Below are positions 24,965 to 64,000 of a stretch of 64,000 nucleotides of DNA, one piece after another (the stretch's first letter is position 1; each line of letters opens with the position of its first letter). This DNA is from an uncultured Gammaproteobacteria bacterium (GTDB lineage Bacteria; Pseudomonadota; Gammaproteobacteria; Steroidobacterales; Rariloculaceae): assembly GCA_963714705.1 (NCBI GenBank), contig CAVQPJ010000013.1:962512-1026511 (forward strand), read 5' to 3'. The position numbers and the translations under genes are program-made. The notes beneath the pieces are model-generated. The model searched no databases and was not told where the DNA came from. It saw nothing but the letters and a program-made list of their open reading frames with translations.

Positions 24965-25061
24965 CGATAACGCTGCAACTCGCTCTCGACATAAGTGCGC
25001 GACTGGACGTCGGCCGCGCCACCGTCTTATCGTCGTCATCCTAAGAACGAGAACTCGACCT

Positions 25062-36211: not shown

Positions 36212-36291
36212 ACCTCCCTTTCCAACGCTGGCTCGTTGGGCCAAACTCCTTGGCGCCGCGACGTTCGACTCGCGGAGCTGGAGACTCCCGT

Positions 36292-44765: not shown

Positions 44766-44810
44766 CGCGGCTCTGCTTTGCTCCGGCGCCTGCTTGACGT
44801 AACGCCTCCG

Positions 44811-45445: not shown

Positions 45446-45556
45446 GGTAACACCGCGTTCCTACCGTGACCAAAAACCCGTAGGGTACGCGCCTCCGGCC
45501 ATCCGCCGCCGCAATTGAATCTGCTGCGATTGTTCAGATTAAGCAGGGAAGAAAAC

Positions 45557-45627
45557 GACGGCTGCGCCCCCACAGTACCGACCTGGGAGGGAGGTGGCCG
45601 GTGTGCTTCACCACGGGCGCAGCCGTC
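45557..45627 (-). terminator. Large-loop hairpin followed by a U-tract (candidate terminator or structured RNA)
   Basis: Perfect 13-bp stem GACGGCTGCGCCC (45557..45569) / GGGCGCAGCCGTC (45615..45627) with a 45-nt internally pairing loop. On the minus strand the 3' arm is followed by GTTTTCTT. Confidence 0.35.
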
Positions 45628-45782
45628 CATCCCTAGAGAGCAGGTTCCGTGCCAACGGGTTACAGCGTGCGGAATGCCTTGGTGCCGCGCGGAAAATCAG
45701 GCCGATGAGCCCCTACGCACGCGTGGTCGTTTGCGCCACTAGTTCGTCGCAAACGCCACAAGAGTGTCCCGATTCCGCAAAC

Positions 45783-46361
45783 TCAGTCTTGCGAACCTTT
45801 CGGCGGAGCGCCTTGACCGGCGAGGCCGGGCACCATGTTGAACATGCCGTCCATGCCGACCCCGGAGGCAATCCTGCCGAGCTGCTCCGGCTTGATGTCG
45901 CCGGCGACGTTGATGAAAACGGCTTCGTCGCCGCCGCCGGTATCGACGACCATCAGCGTGATGCCCGCGATGTTGCCGGAGTTGGCGCCGCCCGTGGCCG
46001 GCTTCATGAAGATGCGCACTCGCTCGCCGTTCTCGTTCACGCGGATCACCGAGCTCCAACCGGCGCTCTCGAGCGTTCGCGACGTGTCGTCGACGAACTT
46101 CAGCAGCTCGGCCTCCGAATCGCCGATGCCCTCGTAGACACGCACGCGCACGTTGGTGACGCCTTCGAGACCGGTCGTATCTTGCACTGACCCTTTGGCC
46201 GCTTCGCCGAAAAAACGCATCATGTCGGGGCCGAGATCGATCTCGACGGTCGGCTCGGAATCGAGCCCCGGAATGTCGTCGAACGAAAAGTAGCCTTGCG
46301 CGTTCGCGCCGCTGCCGAATGCGAGCAATCCGCTGAAGAACAACGCCGATCTGATTTTCAT
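45783..46361 (-). CDS. DUF4252-like secreted protein
   Basis: Signal peptide ...LAFGSGANAQ. Last gene of the ECF sigma/anti-sigma operon. GGAGG lies 8 nt upstream of the ATG. Confidence 0.55.
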   Translation of the reverse strand: MKIRSALFFSGLLAFGSGANAQGYFSFDDIPGLDSEPTVEIDLGPDMMRFFGEAAKGSVQDTTGLEGVTNVRVRVYEGIGDSEAELLKFVDDTSRTLESAGWSSVIRVNENGERVRIFMKPATGGANSGNIAGITLMVVDTGGGDEAVFINVAGDIKPEQLGRIASGVGMDGMFNMVPGLAGQGAPPKGSQD

Positions 46362-46365
46362 GGTC

Positions 46366-46884
46366 TTAGCCTCCGGTTTCGTCGGTATCTCGAGCGAGCG
46401 CGTCGCGGCTCACGGCGAGCGCATCGCGCAAGCCGGTGCCGACGGCACTCGTGACGTGTCCTTGGGTGACGCGCGCGCTCTTCTGCAAGTAGCGCATCGC
46501 GAGTCTCGAGATCCTGGGCCGCCGCGACGGCGCGCGGATCGACGGGCGCTGGCGGCTCTGGCACTAGCCACAGGGCAACGGCGACGACGGCCACCGCAGC
46601 CGCAGCACTCGCGAGCGCCGGCGCGAAGAACGAGGGCCGGGCGCGCGGCGAGCGGCCGGGAATCGCGAGCAAGCGCCGCCGCAGCCCGGGCGGCATCGCC
46701 GCCGGCGGCGACGCGCGCAACGCGCGATGCACGGCGACGGCACGCTCGGCCGCTGCCGCAAGACGCGCGATCCGCCGCGATCGCAGCTGCCATGCGCGTC
46801 TCGGCTCTCGCCGGCCAGGCTGCCGTCGGCCCACGCTTCGAGCTGGGTCCACGCCCACTCTTCGCTCAAATCTCGTTGCGTCAT
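46366..46884 (-). pseudogene. Anti-sigma factor (single-pass membrane), at least three frameshifts
   Basis: The ATG at 46884 overlaps the sigma stop (ATGA). Fragments across three frames: MTQRDLSEEWAWTQLEAWADGSLAGESR / MAAAIAAD / RIARLAAAAERAVAVHRAL...GLRRRLLAIP...TM AAAAVAVVAVALWL / ...AMRYLQKSARVTQGH...DETGG, with stop at 46366. Confidence 0.6.
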
Positions 46885-47440
46885 GACGCACGCTCCAATT
46901 GCTCGCGCAGCTTCCGCCGCGCGCGGTGCAAGTACACCTTGACTTGATTCGCGTTGAGGTCGAGCACGCGCGCGCAGGTCGCGCCATCGAGCCCTTGCAC
47001 GTCGAACATCACGAGCAGGCTGCGCTGCGGCTCCGGCAACGTGTCGACGAGCTTCCGCAATTCGCCGGCCGAGCTCGTGCTGCTCGTAGTGCCACGCCGG
47101 ATCGCGGCCGTCGCTGACCTCCGGCAACTCTGCCGGATCGAAGTTGACGACCCGGCCGGACCTGCGGAAGCGGCTCATGCACGCGTTGCGCGCGACACGC
47201 AGCAACCATTCGCGTGGCCGCTCGACGTCCGGCTCCGTGTTGCCAGTAGCTCAAGAAAACCTCCTGCGTCACGTCCTCGGCCTCGCTCGAATCGCGCAGC
47301 AGCGCCGCGGCGACGCGGTAGACGGCGCGGTCGTGCATGAGCACCGCGAGTCGAAACCTCCAAGGCGACATCACGCCGCCCGGTTCGGACGGATCTGCGT
47401 CTGCCAACGGTTCCCGTTGTGGAATCGCTTGCGGCGCCAT
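46881..47440 (-). pseudogene. ECF-type sigma-70 factor, two frameshifts
   Basis: Region 2 (AEDVTQEVFLSYWQHG, WLLRVARNACMSRFR) and region 4 (LPEPQRSLLVMFDVQGLDGATCARVLDLNANQVKVYLHRARRKLRE) are recovered from three frames. Confidence 0.7.
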
Positions 47441-47513
47441 ACCCTTTGCCGTTGAACCACGCCCTCAAGACGGGCTGAACTCAACGAAGGTTACACCGCA
47501 AAGGATTGCTTCG

Positions 47514-49630
47514 ATGCACCGCTCCTCCGCTCTGGCCCTCACCTTGCTGGCGCTCGCGGGCAACGCCGCCGCCTCCCACGACGAAAGCGTCGGCGCCCGG
47601 TTCGTGCAGCCCGGCGGCGTCGACGCCGGCAACTGCCTCGACCACCACGCGCCGTGCGTCTCGATGCAGTACGCGCTGGCGCAAGCCGAACCGGGCAACA
47701 CGCTCAAGGTCGGGGCCGGCATCTTCGACTTGCGCGGCGTCGACCCCGAGACGTTCTTGCACGGTCCGGTCCATGCGCTCGGGCGGCTACGGCGATGCCG
47801 ATCACTACTACGAGTCGCGGCCGCTGCAGGTGCAGTCGATCGTCACGGGCGTCGACTCGCGGTATCGCAGTGCGCTCGCCGTGCGGGGCTTCTACTGGGC
47901 CGAGAGCGTAGCCGCGGCGCAGCGCAACGAGTTCTCGTTCGCGGGCGGCGCCCCGCTCCAGCAGGCGCAGGCCGCCGCCGTCGCGTGCGTCGCAGGGCGT
48001 GCGCAGGACCGTTTCCCGTGCCGCAACCTCGACTTCGAGTCGCAGATTCCGCTCGCGCAGTTCTCGAGCCGGCCCGTCTCGGCTGCGAACGTCTGGGGCT
48101 TCGTCGATCTCAACGACAACCGCGAGTACGCCGTCTTGGGACTGCGCAACGGGACGGCGATCGTCGAGGTCACGGACCCCGCCGAATCCGCGCGAGGTCG
48201 TGACGATTACCGGCAACTCCTCGCCGTGGCGCGAGGTCAAGGTCTATCAGGTCTTCGACGCCGGCGCGAATCGCTGGCGCGCGTACGCCTACGTGGCGAC
48301 GGAGGCCGCCAACAGCGGGATCCAAATCATCGACATGTCGGGGCTGCCGCAGACGGCGGGGCTCGCGGCCGACGAACCTCGACACGAGCTCGCAGCACAC
48401 GCTGTACGTCTCGAACATCGACTACGCGACGAATGCGGCGCTGCCGGGCCTGACGCCGATGCTGTTCGTTGCCGGCAGTAATCTGAGCCGGCGGCTCGTG
48501 GCGCGCTTATAGCCTCGCGAATCCAACGCTTCCCGCAGCTCGTCAGCTCGGCGCCGTCCGGCGGCTACATGCACGACTCGACGAGCTTCGTCGTCACGGA
48601 CGCGCGCGTGGCGCAATGCGCGCCGGGGCACAATCCCTGCGAGGTCCTCGTCGATTTCAACGTCGATCAAGTCGCAGCTCTGGGACGTCACGAACAAGAC
48701 GCAGCCCGTGCTGCTCGGCACCGGCACCAATCCGAACAACCGCTACATCCACTCCGGGCTGGCCGACCGCCAATGCCACGCACTTGATCTTTCACGACGA
48801 GCTCGAGGAGATTCAGCTCGGGCTCCCGACGCGGATCTACACGCTCGACCTCGCGAATCTACGCGCGCCGACGGTCCAAGTCAGCCATACGGGTCTGACG
48901 ACGACGACGGACCACAACGGCTATGTTCGCGGCACTACTACTACGTCTCGCATTACCGGCGCGGCGTCGTCGTCTACGACGCCGCCAATCCCGAACGCGC
49001 TCGTCGAGGTCGCGCACTTCGACAACTACCTTGCGCCGAGCGCGAACAGCGCAGGCACCGACGGCACCTGGGGCGTGTATCCGTTCCTGCCGTCGGGCAA
49101 CCTGCTCGTCAGCGACATCGAGAACGGCCTGTTCGTGCTGCGCGACCAGACGCGCAGCCTCGACTCGAACGCCGGCCGGCTCGGCTTCGGCGAAATCGCG
49201 GCGTCGGCCGGCGAAAGCGCCGGCGCGATCAACGTTCGCGTGCAACGAACGCTCGGGCGCTCAGGCAGTGTCAGCGTGCAGTACGCGACGAGCGCCGGCT
49301 CCGCGACGGAAGGCGCCGACTACACGGCCGCGAGCGGCACGCTGACGCTGGCCTGCGGGCGACCTCGCCGACAAAGTCATTGCGATCCCCGTGACGAACG
49401 ACACGAGCGTCGAGAACGCGGAGACTCTGACGCTGACGCTGTCGGCTCTGACGGGTGGCGCGACGCTCGACGGCTCGAGCAACGCTGACGATCACGTCAA
49501 CGACAACGATACGGCCGCGCCCCCGAGCAGCGGCGGTGGCGGCTCGTCGGACCTTGCGCTGCTCGCCCTGCTCGCAGGCGTCCTGCTCGCCCGCTGCCGT
49601 GCGCCCCGGCGCCGCCCGACTCTTCGTTAG
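47514..49630 (+). pseudogene. Choice-of-anchor-B-like beta-propeller protein with Calx-beta domain and GlyGly-CTERM-like tail, at least seven frameshifts
   Basis: Signal peptide MHRSSALALTLLALAGNAAA. FPCRNLDFES...ANVWGFVDLNDNREYAVLG...VEVTDP...WREVKVYQ...YAYVATEAANSGIQIIDMS. Calx-beta SVQYATSAGSATEGADYTAASGTLT. Tail SSGGGGSSDLALLALLAGVLLARCRAPRRR. Confidence 0.6.
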
Positions 49631-50929
49631 GCCAGCGCCTGCAGCGGCGCGCGCTCCGCGCTCGGGCGAATGTGCACGTCGCGCTGCGGGTACGGCACGC
49701 GGACACCGTGCTCCTTGAAGCGGTCCCAGATCTGGAGCAGCACGTCGCTCTTGACGTTCTGCACGCCGTTCTGCGCGTCGCCGATCCAAAAGCGCAGCTG
49801 CAGCTTCAGCGAGCTCTCGCCGAACTCGATGAACAGGCACTTCGGCGCCGGATCCGGCAGCACACGCTCCGTCGAGCGAGCCGCCTCCTCGCACAGCGCA
49901 ATGACGCTTCGCACGTCGGACTCGTGATGCACGCCGACGTCGAGCTTGAGCCGCGTCCTGCGCTGCGTGTGTGTCCAGTTCTCCACGGGCTGGGAAATCA
50001 GCGTCTCGTTCGGGATCAGGTGCTCGACGCCGTCGCGCGTGACGACCGATACGTAGCGCCCTCCGAGCGCCGTGACCCAGCCGTAGGTCCCGGCAACCGA
50101 GATGATGTCGCCGGGCTTGATCGATTTGTCGAGGAGCAAGATGACACCGCTGATCAAGTTGCTGACGATCTTCTGCAAGCCGAAACCGAGGGCGACGACG
50201 CCCAAACCGCCCAACACGGCGAGGCCGGTGAGGTCGATGCCGACGGCGTTGATCGCGAACAGCACGGCCAGCGACACGAGCACGATCTTCAGCGACTTCG
50301 TGAACAGCACCTGCACCGTCGGCGACAACGTCTGACTCGTGCGGATGCGCGACTCGAGCAGAGCTCGCCAGGTATAACGCCACGGACAGCAGCACGGCGA
50401 GCGCGATCGTCGACCTGATGACGTCGTACAGCGAAATCGTCACCTGGCCAATCGTGATAGCCGCCGCGTCGAGCACGCTGATCGTCGGCTCGAGAAGGTC
50501 GAGAATGCTGAGCGCGGCGATCGACCACGCGGCCCACGAGATCAACTTGGCCCAGCTGCGATGGCGCACGAACTGCGAGGCGAGGTGAATCGCGATCCAG
50601 GCGGCCAGCAGCGTGACGCCTGTTCGCAGCAACGCATTGGGTCGCTCGCTGAGGCCGAGCACCGTCATCGCGAGCCACAAGAGCGCGAGCCAGACGGCGG
50701 ACAGGGCCATGGATTCGGCGATGACGACGCCTCGGCCAACGTGGCGATGCTCGCGGTAGCGGGCGAACCAAGGAGTCAGGCGTTTCGCGAGCAGCATTGC
50801 GAGCAGCAACGTCAGGAGGACAAGACCGGCTTGCACTGCGTTGCCGAGCACGAACACGTTCGTGAGCAGCCAACCGTAGACGGCATTCCAAATCGCCAGC
50901 AGGCGTTCTGCCGAGAGTAACTCTTCCAT
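49627..50929 (-). pseudogene. MscS-family mechanosensitive channel, one frameshift near 50335
   Basis: ATG 50929 is preceded by GGAGG. Multi-TM N-terminus in the frame of ORF 49271..51271. Channel core LQKIVSNLISGVILLLDKSIKPGDIISVAGTYGWVTALGGRYVSVVTRDGVEHLIPNE in ORF 49627..50328. Confidence 0.75.
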
Positions 50930-51040
50930 ATCCGTAACCTCCGCAGGTTGAGGCCAAACCTTGAGTCTAACGAACCATGGCCAAGCGCCGAACAAGAAGA
51001 TCGTCGCCGCACCGAGGACGCCGATATACTCCCGGCCCCA

Positions 51041-52326
51041 ATGACGAAGGCCCGCGTGCTGTTCGCGAGCTTGATCGGCACGACGATCGAGTTCTTCGAT
51101 TTCTACATCTACGGCACGGCCGCCGTGCTCGTGTTCCCGCAGCTGTTCTTCCCGGCCGGCGATCCCGACGACCGCGACGCTGCAGTCGCTCGCGACCTTC
51201 GCGCTCGCGTTCTTCGCGCGGCCCGTCGGCTCGGCGCTGTTCGGCCACTTCGGCGACCGCATCGGGCGCAAGGCGACGCTCGTCGCGGCCTTGCTGACGA
51301 TGGGCCTGTCGACGGTCGCGATCGGCCTGCTGCCGACCTACGCCGCCATCGGCGTCGCGGCGCCCGCGCTGCTGGCGCTGTGCCGGTTCGGCCAGGGCCT
51401 CGGGCTCGGCGGCGAATGGGGCGGCGCCGTGCTGCTCGCGACCGAGAACGCGCCGCGCGGCAAGGAGAGCTGGTACGGCATGTTCCCGCAGCTCGGCGCG
51501 CCGCTCGGGTTCTTCTGCTCGACCGGCATCTTCCTCGTGCTGACCGAGGTGATGACGTACGACGATTTCCTCGCCTGGGGCTGGCGCATCCCGTTCCTCG
51601 CGAGCGCCGTGCTCGTCGGCGTCGGCCTCTGGGTGCGCCTGACGCTGACGGAGACGCCGGCGTTCCAGCGCGCGATCGAGCGCGCCGAGCGCGTGCGCGT
51701 GCCGATCCTGGTCGTGTGCGCGCGAGCACACGCGCACGCTGGTGCTCGCGACGCTCGCGGCCGTCACGACGTTCGTCGTGTTCTACCTGATGACGGTGTT
51801 CACGCTGAGCTGGGGCACCGACGAAGCTCGGCTTCCCGCGGCAGGACTTCCTGCTGCTGCAGATGATCGGCGTGCTGTTCTTCGCGCTGACGATTCCGCT
51901 GACGGCGGTCGGCCGCCGATCGCGTCGGCCGCTGGCCGATCCTGATCGGCGTCGAGCGTCGTGGCGATCGTCTTCGGCTTGACGTTCGCGCCGCTGTTCT
52001 CGAGCCGACGACGCGGTGACGGTCACGGTGTTCCTGTCGCTCGGGCTCGGCGCTGATGGGCTGCACGTACGGCGCGCTCGGCTCGGCGCTCGCGGAGCTG
52101 TTTCCGACGGCCGTGCGCTACACCGGCGCGTCGTTGACGTTCAACCTCGCGGGAATCCTCGGCGGCTCGCTCGCGCCGTACATCGCGACGTACCTGGCCG
52201 ACTCGTACGGCATCGCGCTACGTCGGCTACTACTTGTCGGCGGCAGCCGCCGTGACGCTCGCGGCGCAGCTCCTGCTCAACCGCCGGCCGCGGCCTCGCC
52301 CCGCCATAGAGCGCAGCGCCGCCTGA
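51041..52326 (+). pseudogene. MFS transporter of the metabolite:H+ symporter (MHS) family, at least six frameshifts
   Basis: TIEFFDFYIYGTAAVLVFPQLFFP, FGHFGDRIGRK, GQGLGLGGEWGGAVLLATENAP and LAELFPTAVRYTGASLTFNLAGILGGSLAPYI are recovered from all three frames. Confidence 0.75.
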
Positions 52327-52922
52327 GCTCCTCCCGTTCGGCCTCGCCGAGCACACGCGGCTCGACGAGTCGGCTTGCCCGTCGCTGCGTCGCGCAACGC
52401 CGAGCGCTTGTGATCGCCGCGCAAGCGCCAGCGCAGCACCTTCGCGAGCACGCGCGCGATCATGACGAGCTCCGGCAAGCCGTCCTTCGGAACCGCGGCG
52501 CGGCCGCCCTTCGCGCTCTTCGCGAAGCCGCGGCCGCGAATCGGACCGAGCGCCGCCGACGGCGCATCGATGAAGGCTTTGATGACGCCGATGAACGGCA
52601 TTGCGCTGGTGGCCATCGTGTTGCCGATCGGCGTGCGGCAGCAGCTCGCGTACCAGCGGATCATTCCTTTCGCGGACAGCCGCACGACCGCGACCTTGTC
52701 GGCTCCGGCCGTGAGACCGACGTTCGCTTGCGACATCTGCGTGATCTCGGTGCCGCCGTGCGCGTCGAGCACGTCGTCGGCGCGGCCGAGGAAATGCGCG
52801 AACGCTTGGCAGTCGTCGCAATAGCAGAAGCAGCGGTTGACGGTGCTCGGTGTCACATCGCGCGCGACGCCGCGCACGGCGCCGCAGCGGCAACGCAGCG
52901 CGAGATCGGTGATCTCTGCCAT
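52277..52922 (-). pseudogene. Cys-rich GFA/CENP-V-like (DUF6151-like) protein, one frameshift near 52380
   Basis: LRCRCGAVRG...NRCFCYCDDCQAFAHFLG...IRWYASCCRTPIGN. The corrected tail RLVEPRVLGEAEREELRRRCALWRGEAAAGG stops at 52277..52279. Confidence 0.5.
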
Positions 52923-52936
52923 AGGCAAAAGCGCAA

Positions 52937-52980
52937 AAGGGGACGGATCTATTTTCGCGAGAAAATAAATCCGTCCCCTT
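52937..52980 (-). terminator. Rho-independent terminator (AT-rich near-perfect hairpin)
   Basis: AAGGGGACGGAT-cT-ATTTTC-GCGA-GAAAAT-Aa-ATCCGTCCCCTT. 19 bp pair around a GCGA tetraloop. On the minus strand it is followed by TTGCGCTTTTG. Sits at the 3' end of the amidohydrolase gene. Confidence 0.7.
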
Positions 52981-54634
52981 GCGTTCGCCCGCGGCGTAGA
53001 CGACGTCGCCGCCGAGCAGCGTCAACACCGACTCGATGTTGCCGACCTCGTCGAGCGGCACCGTGAGGTAGTCGCGCGGACAGCACGGCGAGGTCCGCGA
53101 GCTTGCCGGTCTCGAGCGAGCCGCGCACGTCGTCGTCGAACGAGAACCAGGCGCTGCCGAGCGTGTAGAAGCGAAGCGCCGTCGAGCCGATCGGGCGTCT
53201 CTTCGGGCCCGCGGATCGGCGTGCCGGCCACGCGTCTTGCCGTCGAGGAACCACTGCAGCGACGTGAACGGGTTGTACGACGCGACGCGGTGCGCGTCGG
53301 TGCCGCCGCCGATCGCAACGCCCGAGCCGATGGCCCGTGACGACGGGCGGAATGCGCCGCGCCGCGTCGGCGCCTTGCCGGCGCACGAGGTCCTCGCCGC
53401 CGAAGTACATCGCGTCCTGCACGGTCCAGCCGACGCCGAGCGCGGCCATGCGGCTGCAGCGTCGCCTCCGACGCATCGTTCAAGTGCGCGATCGACCAGC
53501 GCAGCGGCGCGATCGGGACTTCGCGGTTCACGCGCTCGAAGATCTCGAGCAGGTGCGGCGACGGTGTTGTCGGGCCCCCAGTGCATCGTGATCGCCATGC
53601 CGCGCTCGGCGGCCCAGCGCACGATCTCGTAGTAGCGCTCCTTGTGCTCGGCCGTCGGCTCGGGATTGTTGTTCATCGCATACGTGATGCGCTCGCCGAG
53701 GCCGTTGAAGTGCAGGCGGTCGTCGCCGAAGCCCATCGGCAAGCAGCGCCGTGAGGCCCTGGAGCTCGGCGAGCTCGCCGCCCGCCGTCTGGCCGTTCAA
53801 GCTGTAGGCGACGCGGACCGTGAGCTCGCCGCGCCGCCAGACGTCGAACAGCGCCTGATAGTCGGGCGGGAAACAGATTGTTGCCGCCGGGATCGACGAC
53901 GCCCGTGAGCCCGAGCCGATTCAGCTCGCGGAAGAACTCGCGCGTGCCCTGCGACTTGCTCGGCGAACGTCGGCTTCGGCAGCCGATCGAACAGCGCGAT
54001 GATCGCGCCCTGCCCGCCGCTGATCGCGCCGGTGAGCCGCTCGCCGTCGCGCACGAGCGTGCCGCCCGCCGGCAGATCGGCGTCGCTCGCGGATGCCGAG
54101 CTTCGCGAATCCGTCGTCGGTCATGACGACCCAGCCGTAGCCGAGCTGCACGTAGACGGGATTGTTCGGCGCCGCCGCTTCGAGCTCGGCCTGCGTCGGC
54201 CGGCGGCGCTCGGCGAACTGCAGCTCGTTCCAGCCGCCGGCGACGATCAGCCAGCTGCCCGGCGGCCGGCGCTGCCGCGGCTGCGCTGATGCGCGCCAGC
54301 GCTTCCGTCAAGCGACCGCGCGCCGATCCAGTTGACCTCGGTGCTGAAGCGAGAGCGCCGCGCGCACGGCGTGCAGATGCGAGTCGATGAGCCCCGGAAT
54401 GACCGTGCGGCCGCCGAGCTCGACGACGCGCGTCGCGGGACCCGCGAGGCGGCGCATCTCGGCCGTGCTGCCGAGTGCCAGGATCTTGCCGTCGCGAATC
54501 GCGAGCGCCTCGCGCACCGACGCGTCGGCGTCGACGGTGACGACCTTGCCGTCGAGCAGCACGAGGTCGGGCGGCTGCGCCGCGCCGCGGCGCGAGCGAC
54601 GCCGCAAACAGCACGAGGACGAACGGGCGCGCAT
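52949..54634 (-). pseudogene. Secreted amidohydrolase (YtcJ-like metal-dependent hydrolase), at least ten frameshifts
   Basis: DLVLLDGKVVTVD...VIPGLIDSHLHAV, MAITMHWGPD, WSIAHLNDAS, GGGTDAHRVASYNPF and GKLADLAVLSRDYLTVPLDEVGNIESVLTLLGGDVVYAAGE are scattered over three frames. The exact stop is uncertain. Confidence 0.7.
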
Positions 54635-54641
54635 AGTCGGT

Positions 54642-55260
54642 TCATTCGTGTTCTCCGCCGGCGCGGCCGCCGTGCCGCGCCAGCCGCCGCGTGAGGTGCA
54701 GCTTCACCTCGGGCCACTCGCTCGCGAGGATGCTGTACATCACGACGTCGCGCGCGGAGCCGTCGCGGCGCGTTCCGAAATGCCGGACGACGCCGTCTTT
54801 CTTCGCACCGAGCGCTTCGATCGCGCGCTGCGAGGCGAAGTTGAACTTGTCGGTGCGAAGGCCGACGACCTTGCAGCCGAGCGTCTCGAACGCGTGCGTC
54901 AGGAGCAGCAGCTTGCAGCTCGTGTTGACGTGGCTGCGCTGCCAGCTCTTCGCGTACCAGGTGTAGCCGATCTCGACGCGGTCGATGTCGGCGACGATGT
55001 CGTGGAAGCGCGTGCTGCCGACGATCGCGCCAGTCGCAAGATTGCGCACGGCCCACGGCAGCATGCGGCCTTCGCCCTGCCGCGCGAGCGCGGTCTCGAT
55101 GTACGCCTTCGTCTCCGCGGGCGCCGGCACGGCCGTGAACCAGAGCTCCCACAGCGCGCCGTCGGCAGCGGCCGCCGCGAGGTCGCTGCTCGTGGCGCAG
55201 CCCGAGCGGCTCGAGCCGCACGCCGTGACCTTCGAGCTCGACAGGCGAAACGGTGATCAT
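54642..55260 (-). pseudogene. GNAT-family N-acetyltransferase (RimJ/RimL-like), one frameshift near 55190
   Basis: MITVSPVELEGHGVRLEPLGLRHEQ in one frame. ETKAYIETALARQ...IGYTWYAKSWQRSHVNTSCKLLLLTHAFETLG...RAIEALGAKKDGVVR in another. Confidence 0.75.
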
Positions 55261-55284
55261 GGCGTCAGCGCGACGGCGACGTGC

Positions 55285-55837
55285 TCACGGCCAGAGCCAA
55301 CCGAACGCGCCGCCCGTCAGCAACGCGTAGACGAGACCGTCGATCGTCGTGCGGACGGTGGAACCGAGACTGCGCGAGTACCAGATCCAGCTCTGCCACA
55401 GCGCGAGCGCGTAGCCCGCGAAGGCGACCGTGCTCGTGACGCGGAACACCGTCATGTACGGCGCACCCGCCGGCAGCGTCAGCGACGGCGACATAGGCCG
55501 CGAACACGGCGATGACGATCGAATAGATGAACCACTTGACGAGGTTGCGCCCGATCGAGGTGTTCACGAGTATCGTCAGCGCGAAGCTCGGCCCGCGCGC
55601 CTGCTTCGCCTTGAACTCCGGCGAGCTCATGTGCGCCATGCTGTCCGGGATCGGCGCGGCGTAGTCGCCGGGCGCCAGGTTGAACGGCCGCAGCGCGTCC
55701 ATGACGGCGTCCTCGGCAGCAAATTTCTTGAAGTCCTTGGAGTGCCAGCGAAGCGCCATGTGGATCACCGAGCTCGCGACGAACACGAGCACGGCGGAGA
55801 GCAGGATCGGCAACCACAAGTCGACGAGCGAGACCAT
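55285..55837 (-). pseudogene. Hypothetical integral membrane protein, one frameshift near 55495
   Basis: N-terminal part from ORF 55265..55837 (MVSLVDLWLPILLSAVLVFVASS...). C-terminal TM-rich part from ORF 55285..55494 (...[13 protein letters not shown]...GGAFGWLWP). Confidence 0.5.
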
Positions 55838-55882
55838 GACGACCCCCCGGTCAGCGCGGCGCGCGGCGAAGCGGCGCGGAAC

Positions 55883-56688
55883 TTATGGAACGATCGGGCT
55901 CGTGCGGTCGATGCTCGAGCGCTCGCCGCCGACCATGAGCTCGACGGCGTAGTTCGCCTGCTGGCACGAGTACTCGAACAGCTCGACGCCGCGGTCGAAC
56001 CCCAACTCGAAACCACCGGTCCAGCTCGCCGTATACGCGCCCGGATCGTCCACCGTGATCTGGTAGGTGATCGTCTCGGCGTCCTTGCGCGTGAACCGCT
56101 CGATCGTGTGCAGCTGCGTCGTGTGCGGCATGCCGCGGCGGTCGAGCCAGAAGCTCTCGTTGAAGCCCGTGCTGTCGATGACGAGCGTGTCGCCTTCCCA
56201 CTTGCCGATCGCGTGGCCGTAGTAGCTCGGCTCGAGATCCTTGGGATGCGAGCGGCCGTCCATGTAGACCGTGCGAAACGTGTGCGGACCGCCGATATCG
56301 AAGATGTAGAGGCGCTTCAGCTCGGGCATCTCGACGAACTCGACGCCGTACGGCGTCTGGAACTGCCGCGCGGTGCCGCTCGCTTTGCAGCGCGTGTGCG
56401 GCTCGAGCTCGTGGATCTGCCGTGCGTCGTAGAGCGCCTTCGCCCACGGCTGAAACGGCGTCTGGTCGGCCGGATTGATCGGGTCCGTGATGCCGAACAT
56501 GCGGCGTCCACACGCCCTTCTCTGTCGGGCGTCGCGCCCCAGAGGATCGCGCGGCCGTCGGCGTCGCGCGGCGCGGGACCCGGCGGCGGCGCGTTCGCGT
56601 TGCGGCCGCGGCGTTGCGCGCGCGCGCGGGATCCGACGATCACGAGCGCCGCCAACAACAAGGCGGACGCGAGCACAGTCAGCTTCAT
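55883..56688 (-). pseudogene. Secreted L-type partner protein, paralog 5, frameshift(s) near 56510
   Basis: ATG 56688 is preceded by GGAGAG. Signal peptide MKLTVLASALLLAALVIVGSRARAQ (ORF 56317..56688). Then FQPWAKALY, TRCKASG, FRTVYMDGR, GKWEGDTLVIDSTGF, ERFTR, EYSCQQAN (ORF 55883..56908). Confidence 0.75.
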
Positions 56689-56733
56689 GAGCGTCTCTCC
56701 GCGGTCGGGCGGGGCCGGGCCCGCCGCCTGCGA

Positions 56734-57156
56734 TCAATTGGTTGCCGTTGTCTGGCGGCTGCTCGAGTCGGCGTCGAGCGTCTGGCCGGGCCGGCCGCCC
56801 GTCGCCGTCAGCGTCACGGTGCGCGCGTTCATGCGGTTCTCGCCGTTGCGCGCCATGAAGCCGTCGACGCTGACCGACTCGCCGATCTTCAGCGTCTCGC
56901 GGCGCCAACCGCTGCGCTGCAGGCCGTGCGGCGGGCCCATCTCGGCGCCCCAGTTCGTGACTTCACCCGTCGCCTCGTCCTTCACGTTGATGTAGAACCA
57001 GACGTGCGGGTTGGTCCACTCGACCTTCGTGACGATGCCGGTGAGCTTGACGGGCTTCGCGGCATCGAATTCGGCCGAGAACGAATGGTGCGCGAACGCA
57101 GCTCCCGAGAGGAGCATGCCGGCGACGATCGAAGCGGCCACTGTGCGAATGTTCAT
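56734..57156 (-). CDS. Small secreted S-type protein (DUF6152-like), paralog 5
   Basis: ATG 57156 is preceded by GGAGGA. Signal peptide ends GAAFA, followed by HHSFSAEFD, LTGIVTKVEWTNPHVWF. Intact. Confidence 0.85.
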   Translation of the reverse strand: MNIRTVAASIVAGMLLSGAAFAHHSFSAEFDAAKPVKLTGIVTKVEWTNPHVWFYINVKDEATGEVTNWGAEMGPPHGLQRSGWRRETLKIGESVSVDGFMARNGENRMNARTVTLTATGGRPGQTLDADSSSRQTTATN

Positions 57157-57198
57157 GTTGCGATCCTCCGAATCAAAGCTGCGGCGAACGAGCGCCGC

Positions 57199-58326
57199 TT
57201 ACGAGCGATTGTCTTGACAGAAATAGACGGGCAACTCCTCGCCCCCGACCCACTTGAGCTCCCAGCCGCTCGACCACGGCTGCGTGTACGCGCCCGGGTC
57301 GTCGACCGTGACCTCATATCGTAGCGTGTTGTAGTCGGTGCGCGTGAAGCGCTCGACGAGCGAGAGCTGGTCGGTGTGCGGCAAGCCGCCGTTCGTGAAC
57401 CAGAAGTCCTCGTTGAAGCCCGTCGTCGCGACGACGAACGTATCGCCTTCCCAATGCGCGACGGCGCGGCCGTAGTAGAGCGGATTGTCGTCGTCGCCCT
57501 GGACCTGGCCCTGCTGATCGCGGCCATCCATATAGATGATGCGGTAGTTGCGGTTGCCGCCGCCGATCAGCACGAAGATGCGCTGGCGCGCCGCGTCTTG
57601 CGACGAACTGCACGCCGTAAGGCGTCTGAAACTGGCGCACGGCGCCGGGATTCTTGCAGTTCAGGAAGCCCGGGTCGTCGGCGAGGTGCCGCTGCTGGCG
57701 GTGCTGGTAGAGACCAAGCGCCCACGGTTGAAACGGCGCGACGCGCGGCGCGTCGGCGATCCGTGCGAGCACGCCGTCGGCGTCCATGCGCACGTTGGCG
57801 CCGGCCTGCTGCAGCACGGTGCTCGTCGGATAGGCCCAGTACCCGCCGCTGCCGTCGACTGACGCCGAGCAGCGGCTTGCCGTCGGAGCCGCGCGGCGCA
57901 GGCTGTCGCTGCGAGCGCGCGACGGTCGGCGCGCTGTCCGTCGACGTTGTAGACCTGCCGATTCGTCGCCGTCGCGATGACGGTTTCGCCCCAGACCTGG
58001 CGCGAGCCGTCGCGCGCAGGCGGGCCGCTGACGTCTGATGGCATCGCCGGGCTGCAACGTGTCGTGCTTCCAGCCGCTGCGCAGCAGCAGCACGGTGCTC
58101 TCGAGCTCGACGGCCCAGTTCTCGATGGCTGCCGTCGTCGCGCGTGACGTTGGCGAACACGTGCACGTGCGGATTGCGCCAATCGACGCTCGTCACGATG
58201 CCGCGCAGCTCCGGTGCTCTTCGTGTCGTCGAACTTCGCGACGATCGCGTGATGCGCGGCGGCGAGCGACGCCGCGAACGCAGCGCCCAGTCCGACGCAC
58301 CAACCGGCGACGGAACGCGACTTCAT
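57199..58326 (-). pseudogene. Second S-L fusion (DUF6152-like domain plus L-type domain), at least five frameshifts
   Basis: The ATG at 58326 overlaps the upstream stop (ATGA). Signal peptide ends SLAAA, followed by HHAIVAKFD...VTSVDWRNPHVHVF...LLRSGWKHDTLQPGDAI. There is no second signal peptide. Then PRGSDGKPLL, FQPWALGLY, LNCKNPG, YRIIYMDGR, AHWEGDTFVVATTGF, ERFTR, VYFCQDN. Confidence 0.65.
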
Positions 58327-58725
58327 TGCCGGCTCGCCGTGAACGTGCCGCGGCCTTTGTTGCTCGACCACGTGCCGTTGATCGAGCGATTCGGCAGCTC
58401 GAGGTTCTCGAGCTTGCCTTCGATGACGTAGCGCACGGCGCTGCCGTCCTTGTCCTTGCCTTCGGCCTCGAGCTTGACGACCCAGCCGTTCGGCTCGAGC
58501 GACGCGCGCGCTGAGCGGCATGTTGTCGGTGCCGGGGTTGATCATGCCCGTGATGGCTTTGCCGTCCCAATCGAGGATCAGCAGGATGTTGTCGCCGTGA
58601 ACGGTGTTGCCCTGCCACTCGCCGAGCCACGAGCCCTTGAGCGGGTGACCTTCCTGCGCGCCGCTCGACGCGAGCACGCCGAGCGCCAACATCGCCGCCG
58701 CCATCGTTATTAGTCTTTTCATCAT
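58323..58725 (-). pseudogene. Small hypothetical secreted protein, one frameshift in the CG run 58503..58511
   Basis: Signal peptide MMKRLITMAAAMLALGVLASSGAQE. GSWLGEWQGNTVHGDNILLILDWDGKAITGMINPG. The corrected tail SLEPNGWVVKLEAEGKDKDGSAVRYVIEGKLENLELPNRSINGTWSSNKGRGTFTASRQ ends in an ATGA overlap with the next gene. Confidence 0.6.
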
Positions 58726-58798
58726 CTCTCTCTCGATCCGAATCCCATCAAGTCTACGCCGCGCCGCGCGGCGCCTGAATAAAGAATTGTCGGTCGGA

Positions 58799-59261
58799 TC
58801 AGCCGCAGCTCACGAGGCCGACGGCCAAGCTCGCGTTCTCGAGGCGGTCGTTGCAGCCGGGACGGGGGTCGCCCGGACTGGCAACGGTAATGTTGCGGCA
58901 ATTGCGGCGGACCGCCTTGCCGCTCGCCTCACGCGTTTCGAGGACGGTCGTCGTCACGGGGCAAATGGCCGGCACGCGCGTCGCGCAATCGAGGTCGGGC
59001 GCGAGCGCGCAAGCGAAGAGGAACACGCGCCGCCCATCGCGCTGCTCGTAACCCCAGAACACGAGCTCGGTGCCGACGCGGCCGTTCTCGCCCGTAGCCG
59101 TGGCGCCCTCGAGCGCCGGGAAAATCTCGGCCGGCGGCCGATCGAACACCGTCTCCGGGCCCTGCCGGACGTTCATTTGCCGCTCGGGAATCTGCTGCTT
59201 GGGCCGCGGCGCCGAGCGCGCAGCCCAGCGTTACAGCGAGCGATCGCGAGCCTTGTTCCAT
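58799..59261 (-). pseudogene. Hypothetical secreted Cys-rich protein, one frameshift near 59200
   Basis: Signal-peptide-like MEQGSRSLAVTLGCALGAA in ORF 58929..59261. Body with 7 Cys in ORF 58799..59176. Confidence 0.45.
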
Positions 59262-59320
59262 CGATAAAGCCTATGCTCGGGCGCGCTCGCGCTGCAACCG
59301 GCGGGATTGTGAGCCGCGGC

Positions 59321-60455
59321 TCAGTAACCGAGTCGAACGACGCCCTGCGCCATTCCTTGCACGGTTCCGGCCGTCAGCCATTCGAGCGACGCGCGGAACA
59401 ACAGCAGATGGTTCGTCTCCCACATCGCGTTATGTGAGGAACAACCCAAGTCGAGCAGCACCTTGTTCTCGGCGCCGAGATCGGCGAAGTACTCGCTGGA
59501 CGCGCTCGGGCACGACCTGCTTGTCGTGAATGCCGGCGATCATCAACGTCGGCGTTTGCATGCGCTCGACGGCCGGCTTGCCGAAGCCCCACACGGTCGT
59601 GTTCGGCGCTCGCCGCACGCCTTGTCCCCACGACGCGCCGACGGGATCGGACTCGAGCATCGCGCGCCACACGGCGGCGGCGACGGCAGGCTCGTATTGA
59701 TTCGGGCAACCGACCTGGCGTTCCCAGTTCGCGGTGAAGTCGGCATGCGACTGCGCGTTGAACGCGGCGCCCGCGCGCGGGGCTCGGCTGCGGCGGCTGC
59801 TGACCCGCATCGCGCGAATACGCCGGCGCGAGCAGCACGAGCTTCGCCACCTTGTCCGGGTTGCGCGACGCGTAGCCGCCGGCGCGCGGACCGCCGAGCG
59901 ACCAGCCGACGAGACTCACGCGCGGCACGTCGCGCAGCGAGCGGATGTACTCGACGACGGCGTCGATGTCGTCCCAGTCCGACGCGATCGTCGTGAGCTG
60001 CTGCTGCGTGCGTGGCGTTGCAAGGCGTGCGGCCGAGCGCCGTCTGCTGCTCCGCCGAAAGATTGCAGGCGTCGTTCATGACGTTCGGCCGCGTCGAGCG
60101 CCCGTAGCCCGTCATGTCCATCGAGAACACGTCGAAGCCGGCGGCCGCGAGAAACGCCATCCAGCTGTAATCGGCGTGCGGCACGTCGAACGCAACCTCG
60201 GCCGGCGTGCCGGCGCCGTGCACGAACAGCACGACGCGATCGTCGCGCGGCGCGCCGCGCTGGATCGTCGCGGGCTTCACGCGCTCGCGGACGTAGAGTC
60301 TGCGCCGTTTGGCCTTCGATCGAAGGCACGATCGAGCGATTCGGAACGTAGTGATCGACGGTCAGAACGTGCTGACTGTCCTCGCCGGCCGTCGGCTGCG
60401 CGTTGGCGAGCCCGGCTGCGAGCGCCGCAAAGAACGCGATCGCGATCGTGCGCAC
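59321..60455 (-). pseudogene. Secreted alpha/beta-hydrolase, at least four frameshifts
   Basis: GTG 60455 after GGGGGGA. Signal peptide VRTIAIAFFAALAAGLANAQ. VVLFVHGAGTPAEVAFD, FDVFSMDMTGYGRS, nucleophile elbow GWSLGG, MIAGIHDKQV and the corrected tail ...HNAMWETNHLLLFRASLEWL lie in different frames. Confidence 0.65.
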
Positions 60456-60524
60456 GTGTAGTCCCCCCTCGAGAATGCCACCCAATGAATTTGGAAGTAT
60501 CGTCGCAGGTTTGGCTGACAGCGC

Positions 60525-61134
60525 CTAGCGTTGCGGCGGCGCTGCGGCGATCATCAGGCGCGCCAGCGCGGCGTCCTCGTCGCGGCCCGAGCGCGGTCAG
60601 CTGCGCGATGACTGCGTCACGGTCGGCCGCCGAGCGGTTCTGGCTCAGCTTGAACTTGCCTTCGAGCCGCCCGACGCGGATATCGATGCCGACGATGCCG
60701 GCCAGCCGGCGCACGTCGTAGTCGGGAACCCACGGCGCTGAGCGATTTCGCTCGTACTTCGCGGCGAGCGCCTCGACGTGCTTGCGCGTCCGCTCGGCGT
60801 CGTCGACGGTGACGGCCTCGCCATGCGCGTGCACGACCGCGTAGTTCCACGTCGGCACGCCGCCGCGCTCCACGTACCAGGTCGGCGACACATAGCCGTG
60901 CGGTCCCGCGAAGATCGCGAGCACCTGCGGCGAGCGCGCGATCTCCTGCCACTGCGGGTTCGCGCGCGCGACGTGGCAGTGCAGCACGCCCGCGTCACGG
61001 TCGGGCAGGAACGGCAGGTGGCTGAGCGTAGGGCGGCCGTCGGCGACCGTCAGCAGCGTGCCGAACGCGTGCTCGTCGATGAAGTCCCAGAGGGTGCGCG
61101 GATCCTGCTGCTCGAAGTGCTTCGGGATGTACAT
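60525..61134 (-). pseudogene. paiB: PaiB-family FMN-binding protein, one frameshift near 60595
   Basis: MYIPKHFEQQDPRTLWDFIDEHAFGTLL...GKFKLSQNRSAADRDAVIAQL. The corrected tail RSGRDEDAALARLMIAAAPPQR stops at 60525..60527. Confidence 0.75.
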
Positions 61135-61153
61135 GGACTTTCGATCATACGAG

Positions 61154-61229
61154 GGCATGGATGCCCGAGGTAGAGCAATGCAGGACGCGGGCAGGGATGC
61201 CCGCGGTAGAGCAACGCAGGGAGCAGTTG
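61154..61229. repeat. Two tandem copies (B1 61154..61185, B2 61190..61229) of the 40-bp intergenic repeat seen at 31901..31940
   Basis: B2 GGCAGGGATGCCCGCGGTAGAGCAACGCAGGGAGCAGTTG matches copy A at 38/40 positions. B1 GGCATGGATGCCCGAGGTAGAGCAATGCAGGA matches at 28/32. Lies in the divergent promoter region between paiB and the DUF945 gene. Confidence 0.8.
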
Positions 61230-61339
61230 CCGAGCAATTGCCGAACGCCGCGCCCGCGAGTCGCGTCATTGACCGGCGTGGCGCCGTCCGAGATGATCCG
61301 CGACGCGGAAGCGCCCCGCCGACAATTGCCGAGGTTCCC

Positions 61340-62743
61340 ATGAACAAAGTCGCCATCGTCGCGGCCGCCTTGGCTCGTGATCGTGCTGCTCGCCCTGCCC
61401 GGCGTCGTCGGCTCGATCACCGAAGCGCGTGTGCGCGAGCGCGTCGCCGCCATCGATGCCAGCCCCAACGCGGACGCCGCGCTCACGTCGTTCGACCGCG
61501 GGTGGTTTCGCAGCACCGCACGAATCGAGCTCAAGGTCGCACCCGACAACGTCGCGCAGCTCGCGAGCGCCGCCGGCACGCCCCTCGGCGCCTTCGGCAC
61601 GTTGCCGATCGTCGTCGAGTTCGCGCATGGGCCGGTCGCAATGCTCGACGGCGTGTACTTCGGCTGGTCGAAGATGGTCGCCGGCCCGACGTCGAAGCAC
61701 CGGCCGTCGCCGAGCTGACGCAGACGCTCGGCGTCCCGTATATCTTCGAGTTTCGCGGCGCGACACCCTATCTCGGCGGCCTTCACTTCGACGCCGACGC
61801 GCCGCCGTTCACGCTTGCCGATCGACGAGGCGCTGCTGACGTTCTCCGGCGGGACGCTCTCCGGCTCGCTTCGCCGGGCGGCAGCTCGACGCCGACGCGC
61901 AGATCGGCTCGCTCGACTTCACGTCGCCGACGGGGACGTTCGCCGTGCGCGGGCTCCAGGCGAGCGCGGACAACGAGCTGCGTTCCGAGTACGTGATGCC
62001 CGGCGAGACGTCGTTCTCCATCGCGAGCATCTCGATCGCGTATCCGGCGCAAAACGCGACGCCGATGTTCGAGGTCGCGAACTTGAAGGTGGCAAGCGAC
62101 ATCGACATCGATGCGGCCGGCGAGCTGCTCGAGATGCGCGTCACCTACGACGTCGACTACGGTGCGCGTCGAGCAGAACGAGGTGACGGCGGGCTCGCTG
62201 GCCCTCAGCGTGCGCAACCTCGACGTCGCCGCCGTCGAGGCCTACAGCGCGGCGGCCGCCGACGCGGCCAGCGGACGATCCGCAACGCTCGCGGCCACGT
62301 TCGGGCCGCACCTCGAGCGGGCGCTCAGAGCCGGCCCGAGCCTGACGCTCGACCCGATCCGCTTCCGCTACGACGGCGAGCCGTTCGACGGCCGCATCGA
62401 GGTCACGACGAATCCGGAGCGCCTGCCGCCGGCCGGCACGTTGAGCCTCGACAATCCGCTGCTGATGCTGGGCCTCGTCGACACGAAGGCCGACGTGCGG
62501 CTGTCGAAGACGCTGGCGGGCCAACTCGCGACGCTCGGCGCGCGCATGCAGCTCGGCAGCGACCCCACGATCCCACCGGACCAGCTCGACTACATGGCCG
62601 AAGCGCAGTCGGGCCTCATGCTGACGATGCTCGTGGGCCAAGGCGTGCTGATCGAGGACGGCGAGGGCTATCGCACGGCCGTCGATTACACCGACGGCAG
62701 CATGACGCTGAACGGCAACCCGCTGCCGTTCGGGCTTCAGTAG
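61340..62743 (+). pseudogene. YdgA/DUF945-family protein, at least five frameshifts
   Basis: ATG 61340 after GAGG. N-terminal anchor MNKVAIVAAALA..VIVLLALPGVVG. FDRGWFRSTARIELKV, VEFAHGPV and the C-terminus YRTAVDYTDGSMTLNGNPLPFGLQ resemble E. coli YdgA. Confidence 0.6.
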
Positions 62744-62744
62744 C

Positions 62745-63297
62745 TCAATTCTCGGTCCCGGGCGGCTCGGCCACCGCCTCTTCGGGCGGCGAACCTTCTC
62801 CGGCGGCTTCGACCCTCGGCGGGCTCGACCTCGTCGTCTCGTTCGATCTCGACGGCTCGTTTCGATGGCGCTTTGCCCCGCCTCGCCCTTCTCGCGAAGC
62901 TCGAGCTCCTCGACCTCGGCCGGCGACAGCGGCACGAACTCGCCGAGCCGGCACGTGAACCCCGGGCGAAAACCGCCGCCGAGATCCTCGAGCACCGTGA
63001 TCTGGTCGATGCTGCACAGCCGGCTGCTGTGCGTCTGCGTATGCGATCCGGTTCTCGCGCTCCAGACCGGGGCATTTGCGCGGCAAATGGTTGCGATAGA
63101 CCTTGCTGCCGCGCATGTAGAAGATGATGTTCTGGTCGTCGATCGCGTCGGTCTGGTCGATGCTCTGAGTGATGAGGCAATCTCGCGGCGTCCGGTCGAA
63201 CGCCGCCATCGTCTTGGCCGTCCGCGGTCGCGGCGCGGCGAGCAACGGCAACAACGCGGCGGTCAGGCGGAAACCCGCTAGCGAAGCGCGAGTCCAT
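62745..63297 (-). pseudogene. DUF6491-like secreted protein, at least three frameshifts
   Basis: DCLITQSIDQTDAIDDQNIIFYMRGSKVYRNHLPRKCPGLERENRIAY, then SRLCSIDQITVLEDLGGGFRPGFTCRLGEFVPLS in another frame. Confidence 0.5.
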
Positions 63298-63473
63298 GGC
63301 AGTACCTCCTGCGTTCGCTTACACTATTCCTTCTTATAGCGCAGCCACGGGCGGGCGAGAAGAAGGCTGCCCTACCGTGCGGGCACGCGGCCCAACTGTG
63401 ACCACGCTCACGGCTAGCGAACCCGCGCCGCGCCTAGAGTTCCAGCCGTCTTGCGTCGGCTCGGCAAGGACGC

Positions 63474-64000
63474 ATGGCCTCCCTCAGCAAGACTGCTTCT
63501 CCCGCGCCCGCGACGCCATCGCCTGCGGCGGCGCCCAGCTCGCCGGCCGAGCACATCTACATCGGCTCGGAGGATTTGAGCGCCGATCCGGCAATCGCCG
63601 CGCGTACGCTGCGCGAGACCGTCGTCCTGCGCAACCCGATTCGCCATACCGGGGCCGAGCTCACGCTGTACGACGAGGGCTACCTCAAGGTCACCGAGGT
63701 CGCGAAGGGCACCGCCGACGCGCCGTTCTTTCTCGATCTGCGTTTCGTCGATCCCGTGCCGAAGATCGAGCGCGTGATTGCCGTGCGTTGGCTCACCGCC
63801 GCACTCGGCTGCGGCGCCGCTGACGGCGTTGGCCGCCTTCTTGCTGCGTTTCGACGCGTTCCACACCGTAGCCATGGTGGCGCTCGGCGTCGCGGTGCTT
63901 GCGACTGCCGCGACGCTCTACGTCGGCGTCTATTCGAGCCACGAGAACATCGAGTTCTGCACGCTTGCACGGGCGTGCGTCCGTGCTGCGAGCTCGTCGC
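63474..64000 (+). CDS. Hypothetical membrane protein, 5' part running off the window (probable frameshift near 63830)
   Basis: The ATG 63474 frame is open to the window end: MASLSKTASPAPATPSPAAAP...LTLYDEGYLKVTEVAKGTADAPFFLDLRFVDP. A hydrophobic continuation LTALAAFLLRFDAFHTVAMVALGVAVLATAATLYVGVY lies in a shifted frame. Confidence 0.4.
   Translation, partial: MASLSKTASPAPATPSPAAAPSSPAEHIYIGSEDLSADPAIAARTLRETVVLRNPIRHTGAELTLYDEGYLKVTEVAKGTADAPFFLDLRFVDPVPKIERVIAVRWLTAALGCGAADGVGRLLAAFRRVPHRSHGGARRRGACDCRDALRRRLFEPREHRVLHACTGVRPCCELV

Follow-up and report, generated by a model that had tools for sequence, protein, structure and literature searches.

Why do the genes of this 64,000-nt window (the whole stretch of DNA analysed here) suddenly lose their reading frames near 46.4 kb: are they decaying, or is the sequence itself at fault? 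A frame track obtained by Viterbi decoding of codon usage records about 55–60 same-strand frame changes across 46.4–64 kb and only a handful over 1–46.4 kb. With the exception of one group, the upstream changes coincide with normal gene junctions or low-complexity tails; candidate frameshifts at 6848, 37973 and 45215 proved to be an ordinary ATGA junction between genes, a Gly-rich tail and the VapB-VapC junction, respectively. The switch to frequent frame changes is real and far above chance, and an abrupt passage from intact to frameshifted genes, which the original prediction had described, is borne out by both the frame track and alignments to relatives. Its placement of the onset at 46.37 kb is close, with the first detectable event at 46,501/2; its count of 50–60 shifts is too low, as reference alignments give about 80 events.

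The first 46 kb are indeed clean for the most part. The ORFs of 1278, 1066 and 928 aa listed earlier as intact are all found in the window, and between 37.5 and 44.8 kb it carries no frameshifting indel relative to its relatives, in line with the earlier view that the genes from 36.2 to 46.36 kb are intact. Rfam and tRNA scans detected a single tRNA-Arg, located in the clean part, and nothing else. What the original prediction missed is a short noisy tract (tract A, 35117–36148), in which pairwise alignment to the relative L084 and a multiple sequence alignment (MSA) identify seven extra bases, at about 35117, 35480, 35495-6, 35602, 35608 and 36147, and clustered, with groups of three inside 20 nt and of two inside 7 nt. 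All four places displayed in the MSA (35117, ~35480, ~35495 and ~35605) show gaps in ten of ten relatives, and ten relatives are counted in the event table for 36147. The affected gene encodes a DedA/VTT-cytochrome c-PQQ propeller fusion (33829–36206, plus strand), which is intact, at 791 aa, in L084, and the Pfam PQQ profile carries on in frame +1. Consequently, the frame-shifted gene reads through falsely into its neighbor, creating a 952-aa ORF at 33829–36687. The mismatch rate to L084 is the same inside tract A and does not change across its edge.

The second and much larger noisy tract (tract B, 46502 to at least the window end at 64000) sets in between ~46.0 and 46.5 kb, within a conserved operon for an ECF sigma factor, its anti-sigma factor and a DUF4252 protein. 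The last intact gene before it, on the minus strand at 45783–46361, encodes the 192-aa DUF4252 protein (recognized by Pfam), and conserved gene order in L082 and L083, as well as in a Logan contig from run ERR12036786, unites this gene in one operon with two broken ones: the anti-sigma factor gene (46366–46884, minus strand; three inserted bases, at 46501/2, 46768 and about 46799–46801) and the ECF sigma-70 factor gene (46881–47345, minus strand; two inserted bases, at 47067/8 and 47227/8). The noise boundary lies inside a conserved operon and is therefore not a biological junction. A chimera of two genomes fused at this point was rejected because the conserved operon spans the boundary in all three references; it is also disfavored by the unchanged substitution divergence across the tract A edge.

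The same operon bears directly on the idea that the roughly 80 small insertions are truly present in the organism and have only recently inactivated a 17.6-kb block together with part of the PQQ gene. The frameshifts are physically there in the given sequence, and a localized mutational event could in principle make localized tracts. Yet the Logan contig, which encodes exactly the 294-aa NmrA protein of the window and has the same VapB-PIN-DUF4252 order, carries, as compared at the protein level, an intact 153-aa ECF sigma factor (P0277) and an intact 171-aa anti-sigma factor. When two bases are removed from the window sigma gene, its product differs by 1 aa from P0277 and P0271. Besides ERR12036786, run ERR15459708 also contains genes identical to those in the window. 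The MEGAHIT contig L164, at 95% nucleotide identity, aligns with exactly four gaps, each a 1-nt insertion in the window, and is gapped at both sigma insertion sites. Close relatives from short-read assemblies likewise do not have the extra bases.

Events were called from nucleotide MSAs and alignments against 7–12 intact relatives, with L001–L004 and L081–L083 as references for the tract B blocks; tblastn searches with ORFs from relatives as queries and the uncorrected window as target gave shift counts blurred by gapped extension, and nucleotide MSAs were used instead. Tract B contains 72 single-base and 2 two-base insertions, all between 46,502 and 63,964, and 3–7 small deletions, of which three single-base ones (48937, 49495 and 61681) are well supported and up to four are uncertain. 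On the plus strand, a Calx-beta/choice-of-anchor-B-like secreted protein gene (47574–49522; Pfam Calx-beta on the orthologues) has about 13 insertions plus 2 deletions of one base each, where at least 7 shifts had been proposed; an MFS transporter gene (51039–52323), credited earlier with at least 6, has 8 insertions (51163, 51720, about 51818-24, 51911, 51948, about 52005-8, 52049 and 52218), with 7–8 of 8 relatives agreeing at each, and upon correction lies within a stop-free frame of 448 codons, stop to stop; and a DUF945 gene (61340–62740) has insertions at 61372, 61815, 61870 and 62159 and the single-base deletion at 61681.

The remaining genes are on the minus strand. An MscS-type mechanosensitive channel gene (49628–50930; Pfam on the orthologues) has at least one insertion (50361), and a DUF6151 gene (52304–52922) has one near its 3' end (52370). 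The YtcJ-like amidohydrolase gene (Amidohydro_3; 52969–54650), for which at least 10 shifts had been suggested, has 13 single-base insertions, each facing a gap in 8 of 8 aligned relatives. Single insertions interrupt genes for a GNAT acetyltransferase (54645–55260; at 55187), a 183-aa membrane protein (55288–55837; at 55487), a 132-aa protein (58326–58722; at 58511) and an FMN_bind_2 (PaiB-like) protein (60537–61134; near the 3' end, about 60597). A gene for a 268-aa protein (55886–56688) is hit at 56501 and 56524, two DUF6152 genes (140 and 373 aa; 56737–58326) at 57175, 57600, 57860, about 57940, 58034, 58129 and 58211, and an alpha/beta hydrolase gene (59324–60455) at 59497, 59770, 60002 and 60298. 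Finally, in a DUF6491 gene (62763–63297), insertions at 62812, 63037, 63208, 63233-4 and 63292 are accompanied by the loss of 2 nt at 62853.

The genes beneath the extra bases are ordinary and intact. All 19 reference-defined genes (19/19) become single-frame, stop-free and full-length once the extra bases are removed, with 78–96% identity to their references, and no in-frame stop is left in the corrected genes, as had been claimed. For the corrected amidohydrolase, more than 100 intact proteins align without gaps over 526–531 aa, at 93–94% identity; the best match in a search for a 100%-identical intact counterpart was 94%. Both this protein and the corrected PQQ protein are matched in one stretch, over nearly the whole query, by 80/80 genome and 80/80 metagenome loci, and the gene calls are whole in L081–L083. 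The comparison with orthologous loci of close relatives, proposed at the outset, thus finds intact orthologues and extra bases specific to the window. Searches for proteins identical to the 314-aa and the 192-aa gene products gave no match, and no assembly 100% identical at the DNA level over tract B was found.

Statistically, the insertions behave as noise and not as products of mutation and selection. They are spaced as in a Poisson process with about one event per 245 bp (CV 0.99; KS test for an exponential distribution, p = 0.44), and the identity of the extra bases is consistent with local composition (p = 0.48). Insertions are indifferent to coding context: in addition to this spacing, the 19 placeable events occupy the three codon slots in a 9:7:3 ratio, and four insertions are intergenic. 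By event count, insertions outnumber deletions roughly 10–25 to 1 (74 vs 3–7), and extra bases make up ~0.4–0.7% of positions in both noisy tracts. Private substitutions are rarer in the window (0.75%) than in any relative compared (2.1–4.3%); in the amidohydrolase alignment, the window has 2 and the relatives 6–35 each (n = 8).

These numbers argue strongly against real mutations. Nearly all events are +1 insertions, against the deletion bias of bacterial pseudogenes (PMC2817411, PMC6054270); they are random in codon position and also affect intergenic DNA; 13 of them fall in one 1.6-kb gene, far beyond what inactivation needs; and with no stop codons and no substitution excess, the signatures of purifying selection are intact. 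Recent inactivation is thus exceedingly improbable, and the very recent, indel-only inactivation block offered originally as an alternative is effectively excluded by the intact independent contig, the relatives and the substitution counts. That the extra bases are real, either in the DNA or in its raw signal, is highly improbable as well: the former could mean a localized burst of +1 insertions, e.g., through error-prone repair synthesis over two chromosome tracts, and the latter a tract-specific DNA modification that would make a single-molecule basecaller insert bases.

Could the cell nonetheless restore the frames at expression, by programmed ribosomal frameshifting or transcriptional slippage? 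Nothing beyond the protein-like corrected translations speaks for it, and with up to 13 sites per gene, in diverse contexts that share neither a slippery motif nor a homopolymer, missing from all orthologues and accompanied by insertions in intergenic DNA, the idea is practically inconceivable. In endosymbionts, homopolymer slippage does rescue frameshifted genes, but it requires a long poly(A) or poly(T) run at the shift site. The window resembles such systems in that genes with shifted frames may nonetheless yield functional proteins; unlike theirs, its insertion contexts are GC-rich and non-repetitive, with many sites per gene.

The extra bases are of non-biological origin, and the frame breaks are almost certainly faults of the sequence as assembled or deposited rather than mutations in the organism. 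The preference for indel errors over ancient decay expressed in the original prediction is supported by the restoration of the genes, the intact relatives and the lack of a substitution excess. Pseudogene decay during reductive genome evolution likewise leaves many neighboring genes with disrupted frames, but in natural decay deletions are favored, indels vary in size, nonsense mutations appear and constraint is relaxed (PMC2817411, PMC6054270). The window has hardly anything but +1 insertions, lacks stops and has fewer private substitutions than any other sequence compared: deletions do not exceed insertions and sizes are not mixed (74 insertions of 1–2 nt vs 3–7 deletions), and neither nonsense mutations nor relaxed constraint is seen in the corrected genes.

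Indels in long-read and hybrid assemblies are a closer parallel (Kastor, PMC12007338; Trycycler, PMC8442456). There, too, adjacent gene fragments lie in different frames, the frames are restored by removing indels seen against intact relatives, nonsense substitutions are lacking and the noise comes in patches on the contig. The errors are most likely those of a consensus built from one or very few single-molecule reads, or of stretches left unpolished, in which case the sharp onset of tract B would mark a read or coverage boundary. An unpolished long-read stretch is a plausible, though not proven, detailed cause; the specific source may be a few-read consensus, failed polishing or later corruption. 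As to size, tract B (at least 17.5 kb) is about one long-read length, and tract A, at 1 kb, is short for a long-read coverage gap.

The error profile fits this picture imperfectly: dominated by insertions, independent of homopolymers and free of mismatches, it is atypical for the commonest long-read artefacts. Errors in Nanopore and CCS assemblies are mostly homopolymer-associated, with deletions prevailing (PMC12007338). Unlike these published profiles, the window has 74 insertions against 3–7 deletions, no homopolymer link and no substitution component. Only 22 of 61 events lengthen a run (31 expected by chance), runs at insertion sites do not exceed 3 nt, and none of the six homopolymers of at least 5 nt carries an insertion; homopolymer-driven error was ruled out on the run-extension count and these untouched longer runs. 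Raw PacBio continuous long reads have stochastic, insertion-dominated errors, and the window profile would be closer to these.

An insertion-only pattern without added substitutions would also arise if a partial-order consensus kept both alleles of strain SNPs side by side, and patchiness would be possible in places where two strains are both present. Such collapsed polymorphism seemed consistent with the first three amidohydrolase sites. However, it predicts insertions adjoining third codon positions, while 9 of the 19 placeable ones lie between positions 1 and 2, and 36% of events merely duplicate the adjoining base. Allele doubling at synonymous sites was rejected on the codon-slot distribution, and collapsed strain polymorphism is very unlikely.

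The idealized randomness of the events, which are Poisson-spaced, independent of context and accompanied by hardly any deletions and by no substitutions, could instead reflect corruption after assembly, i.e., a software bug or the deliberate or accidental in-silico addition of random bases in two stretches of a contig that is correct elsewhere, and no common sequencing platform has been described with such a profile (PMC12007338). This is unlikely, though worth keeping in mind. The extra bases follow the GC-rich local composition, with a uniform 25% usage of each base rejected (p = 0.002); a few genuine single-base deletions are present; and the events in tract A are clustered. Moreover, GC content within the window is highest in the noisy tracts (tract A, 0.73; tract B, 0.685; clean sequence, 0.663), which suggests a physical or coverage-related cause.

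The matter is one of quality control alone, with no biological significance or novelty. The insertion-only, homopolymer-independent profile is worth reporting to the producers of the assembly because it indicates a specific consensus or polishing failure. Annotation of the contig as given would yield about 20 false pseudogenes together with the false 952-aa fusion ORF, and the catalogued insertion positions permit direct repair.

The window, at a G+C content of ~67%, is rich in long spurious ORFs, and its reading frames were therefore followed with a seven-state Viterbi track on a codon-usage model, for which long ORFs in the first 46 kb served as the training set. The predicted abrupt switch to pervasive frameshifts is evident: same-strand frame switches are few in 1-46.4 kb, and ~55-60 occur from 46.4 kb to the window end, with the coding strand direction unchanged and a protein-like translation in every frame segment. 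Three positions were considered as frameshifts and rejected: ~6848 is an ATGA stop/start overlap, ~37973 a glycine-rich tail, and ~45215 a VapB-VapC junction. The intact ORFs of 1278, 1066 and 928 aa named in the original prediction were found, and a Pfam scan of ten ORFs in 33.8-46.4 kb gave matches, mostly full-domain, for eight and none for two.

Relatives place the extra bases precisely. The frame-corrected amidohydrolase translation, used as the query against species-representative genomes, retrieved 80 loci, all of which match it in one stretch over nearly the entire query length. L001, a locus from a Gammaproteobacteria MAG, aligns collinearly from window position 64,000 down to 45,553 (84-88% nucleotide identity), and three additional relatives with whole gene calls (L081-L083) span 45.55-64 kb. 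In multiple alignments, the window is set apart from every relative by isolated one-base additions; the amidohydrolase, predicted to hold at least 10 shifts, has 13 extra-base columns, each gapped in 8/8 relatives. Tract B, which runs from 46,502 to the window end, contains 72 single-base and 2 two-base insertions (46,502 to 63,964), only three well-supported single-base deletions (48937, 49495, 61681) and a few uncertain small deletions in variable segments. The earlier estimate of ~50-60 shifts agrees with the frame track but is exceeded by the alignments, and the proposed comparison with orthologous loci found relatives free of the extra bases.

The events are spaced at a mean of 246 nt with a CV of 0.99 (exponential fit, KS p = 0.44). 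The inserted bases (C 23, G 22, T 11, A 5) fit the local composition (p = 0.48), and a uniform draw is rejected (p = 0.002). Insertions extend a run in 22 of 61 cases, vs 31 ± 4 expected if random; runs at insertion sites are ≤3 nt, and the six homopolymers of ≥5 nt in tract B are all spared. The 19 exactly placeable events fall between codon positions 1/2 (9), 2/3 (3) and 3/1 (7), and this spread, together with four intergenic events, indicates an inserting process blind to coding context.

Real recent gene inactivation is contradicted on several counts: bacterial pseudogenes have a deletion bias (PMC2817411, PMC6054270), intergenic DNA is also struck, and the genes show neither stops nor relaxed constraint. 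Private substitutions, counted at columns in which the remaining sequences are unanimous, are lowest in the window (0.75% vs 2.1-4.3% in six relatives); in the amidohydrolase the window has two, both at third positions, and eight relatives have 6-35. Across codon positions, the window's private changes (31:32:53) are spread a little more evenly than those of most relatives; misplaced gaps beside the 72 insertions can account for this, and in absolute number the changes are the fewest. Once extra bases are deleted and deletions padded, 19/19 reference genes align in one frame and, in line with the original observation, without stops; their best alignments span 58-100% of the reference protein (>85% in 17/19) at 78-96% identity. 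The corrected amidohydrolase aligns gap-free over 526-531 residues with more than 100 intact YtcJ-like proteins (93-94% identity).

Independent assemblies also carry intact genes, against real inactivation. Exact look-ups found the window's 335-aa, 162-aa and 294-aa proteins (41916-42923, 33239-33727 and 43881-44765, in the clean part) in Logan assemblies from two runs, ERR12036786 and ERR15459708, with no residue altered. A 4,603-nt ERR12036786 contig encodes the exact NmrA protein; PIN, VapB and DUF4252 (192 aa) genes come next, as in the window, and after them a 171-aa anti-sigma and a 153-aa ECF sigma whose single product holds both sigma domains. It is exactly collinear with window 43,881-46,361, past which the window exceeds it by the number of inserted bases. 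Its sigma protein, P0277, was recovered via its cluster; once the window loses a base at each of 47067/8 and 47227/8, it encodes a 153-aa product that is a single residue from both P0277 and P0271, the sigma protein of an 857-nt MEGAHIT contig (L164). At 95% identity, L164 aligns to the window with exactly four gaps, each a single-base insertion in the window (46801, 47067, 47227, 47472). The VapB-like antitoxin and PIN-domain toxin pair (44811-45500, -), between the NmrA and DUF4252 genes, is present in the ERR12036786 contig and absent from L081-L083.

The analysis shows a non-biological origin of the extra bases; the original preference for indel errors over decay is supported by the restored genes, the unrelaxed constraint and the intact independent contig, and there is no biological novelty. 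The first tract B event lies at 46,501/2. Compared with three to four relatives, the preceding 950 nt show no single-base indels, an event-free stretch with a probability of ~2% at the tract B rate, which puts the onset some hundreds of bases before 46.5 kb, consistent with the predicted 46,366 but not pinned to it. The onset sits within a conserved ECF sigma/anti-sigma/DUF4252 operon and hence marks no biological junction. The error-producing step was probably a consensus supported by a single-molecule read or very few of them, or else polishing that did not extend to these tracts. Such a cause would fit the sharp tract edges, the length of tract B (at least 17.5 kb) and the rise in GC (0.73 in tract A, 35,117-36,148, and 0.685 in tract B, the richest in the window, vs 0.663 in the clean sequence). 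Nanopore and CCS assembly errors are described as homopolymer-linked and deletion-rich (PMC12007338), whereas the window's profile is nearly insertion-only, homopolymer-independent and substitution-free; because of this mismatch, a software fault or later corruption is retained as an explanation, albeit an unlikely one.

The upstream part has a noisy tract too. A 952-aa ORF (33829-36687) links DedA/VTT, cytochrome c, PQQ and DUF6152 domains; at ~35,123-35,600 the protein-like frame is +1, and the Pfam PQQ profile carries on there. The corrected PQQ protein is matched in one stretch, over nearly its full length, by 80 metagenome loci. One of them, L084, carries the DedA-cytochrome c-PQQ gene whole, at 791 aa (9395-11770; 88-93% nucleotide identity to the window); against it and nine other relatives, tract A has seven extra bases, and the window-L084 mismatch rate is no higher within the tract than beside it. 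The window copy (33829-36206, +) is broken by inserted bases only. Outside tract A, no further coding sequence with a frameshifting indel was found in the 18.9 kb of upstream region covered by relatives. The practical yield is a list of repair positions and a warning of this second noisy tract at 35.1-36.15 kb.

The DedA/VTT membrane domain, cytochrome c domain and PQQ beta-propeller form a natural fusion protein, intact in L084; the one-stretch matches of the other 79 loci cover its cytochrome c-PQQ part. DUF6152-type paralogues at 578-1829, 5046-5924, 8652-9836, 36334-37472, 55961-57156 and 57202-58326 share 27-47% identity and an N-terminal AHHSFSAEFD motif, which suggests an expanded family in this lineage. 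The long-read MAG locus L001 lacks both the ECF sigma and anti-sigma genes, and its Calx-beta gene is missing the 5' half (window 46172-48052 vs L001 16400/16401); all three are common to the window, L081-L083 and another relative, L004, so that either L001 has undergone a deletion or it is misassembled. The 1278-aa gene (ORF 25062-28898) lies within a 4.8-kb segment (24123-28912) missing from L084, otherwise collinear and 92-93% identical on both flanks; the segment is a strain-specific insertion or deletion.
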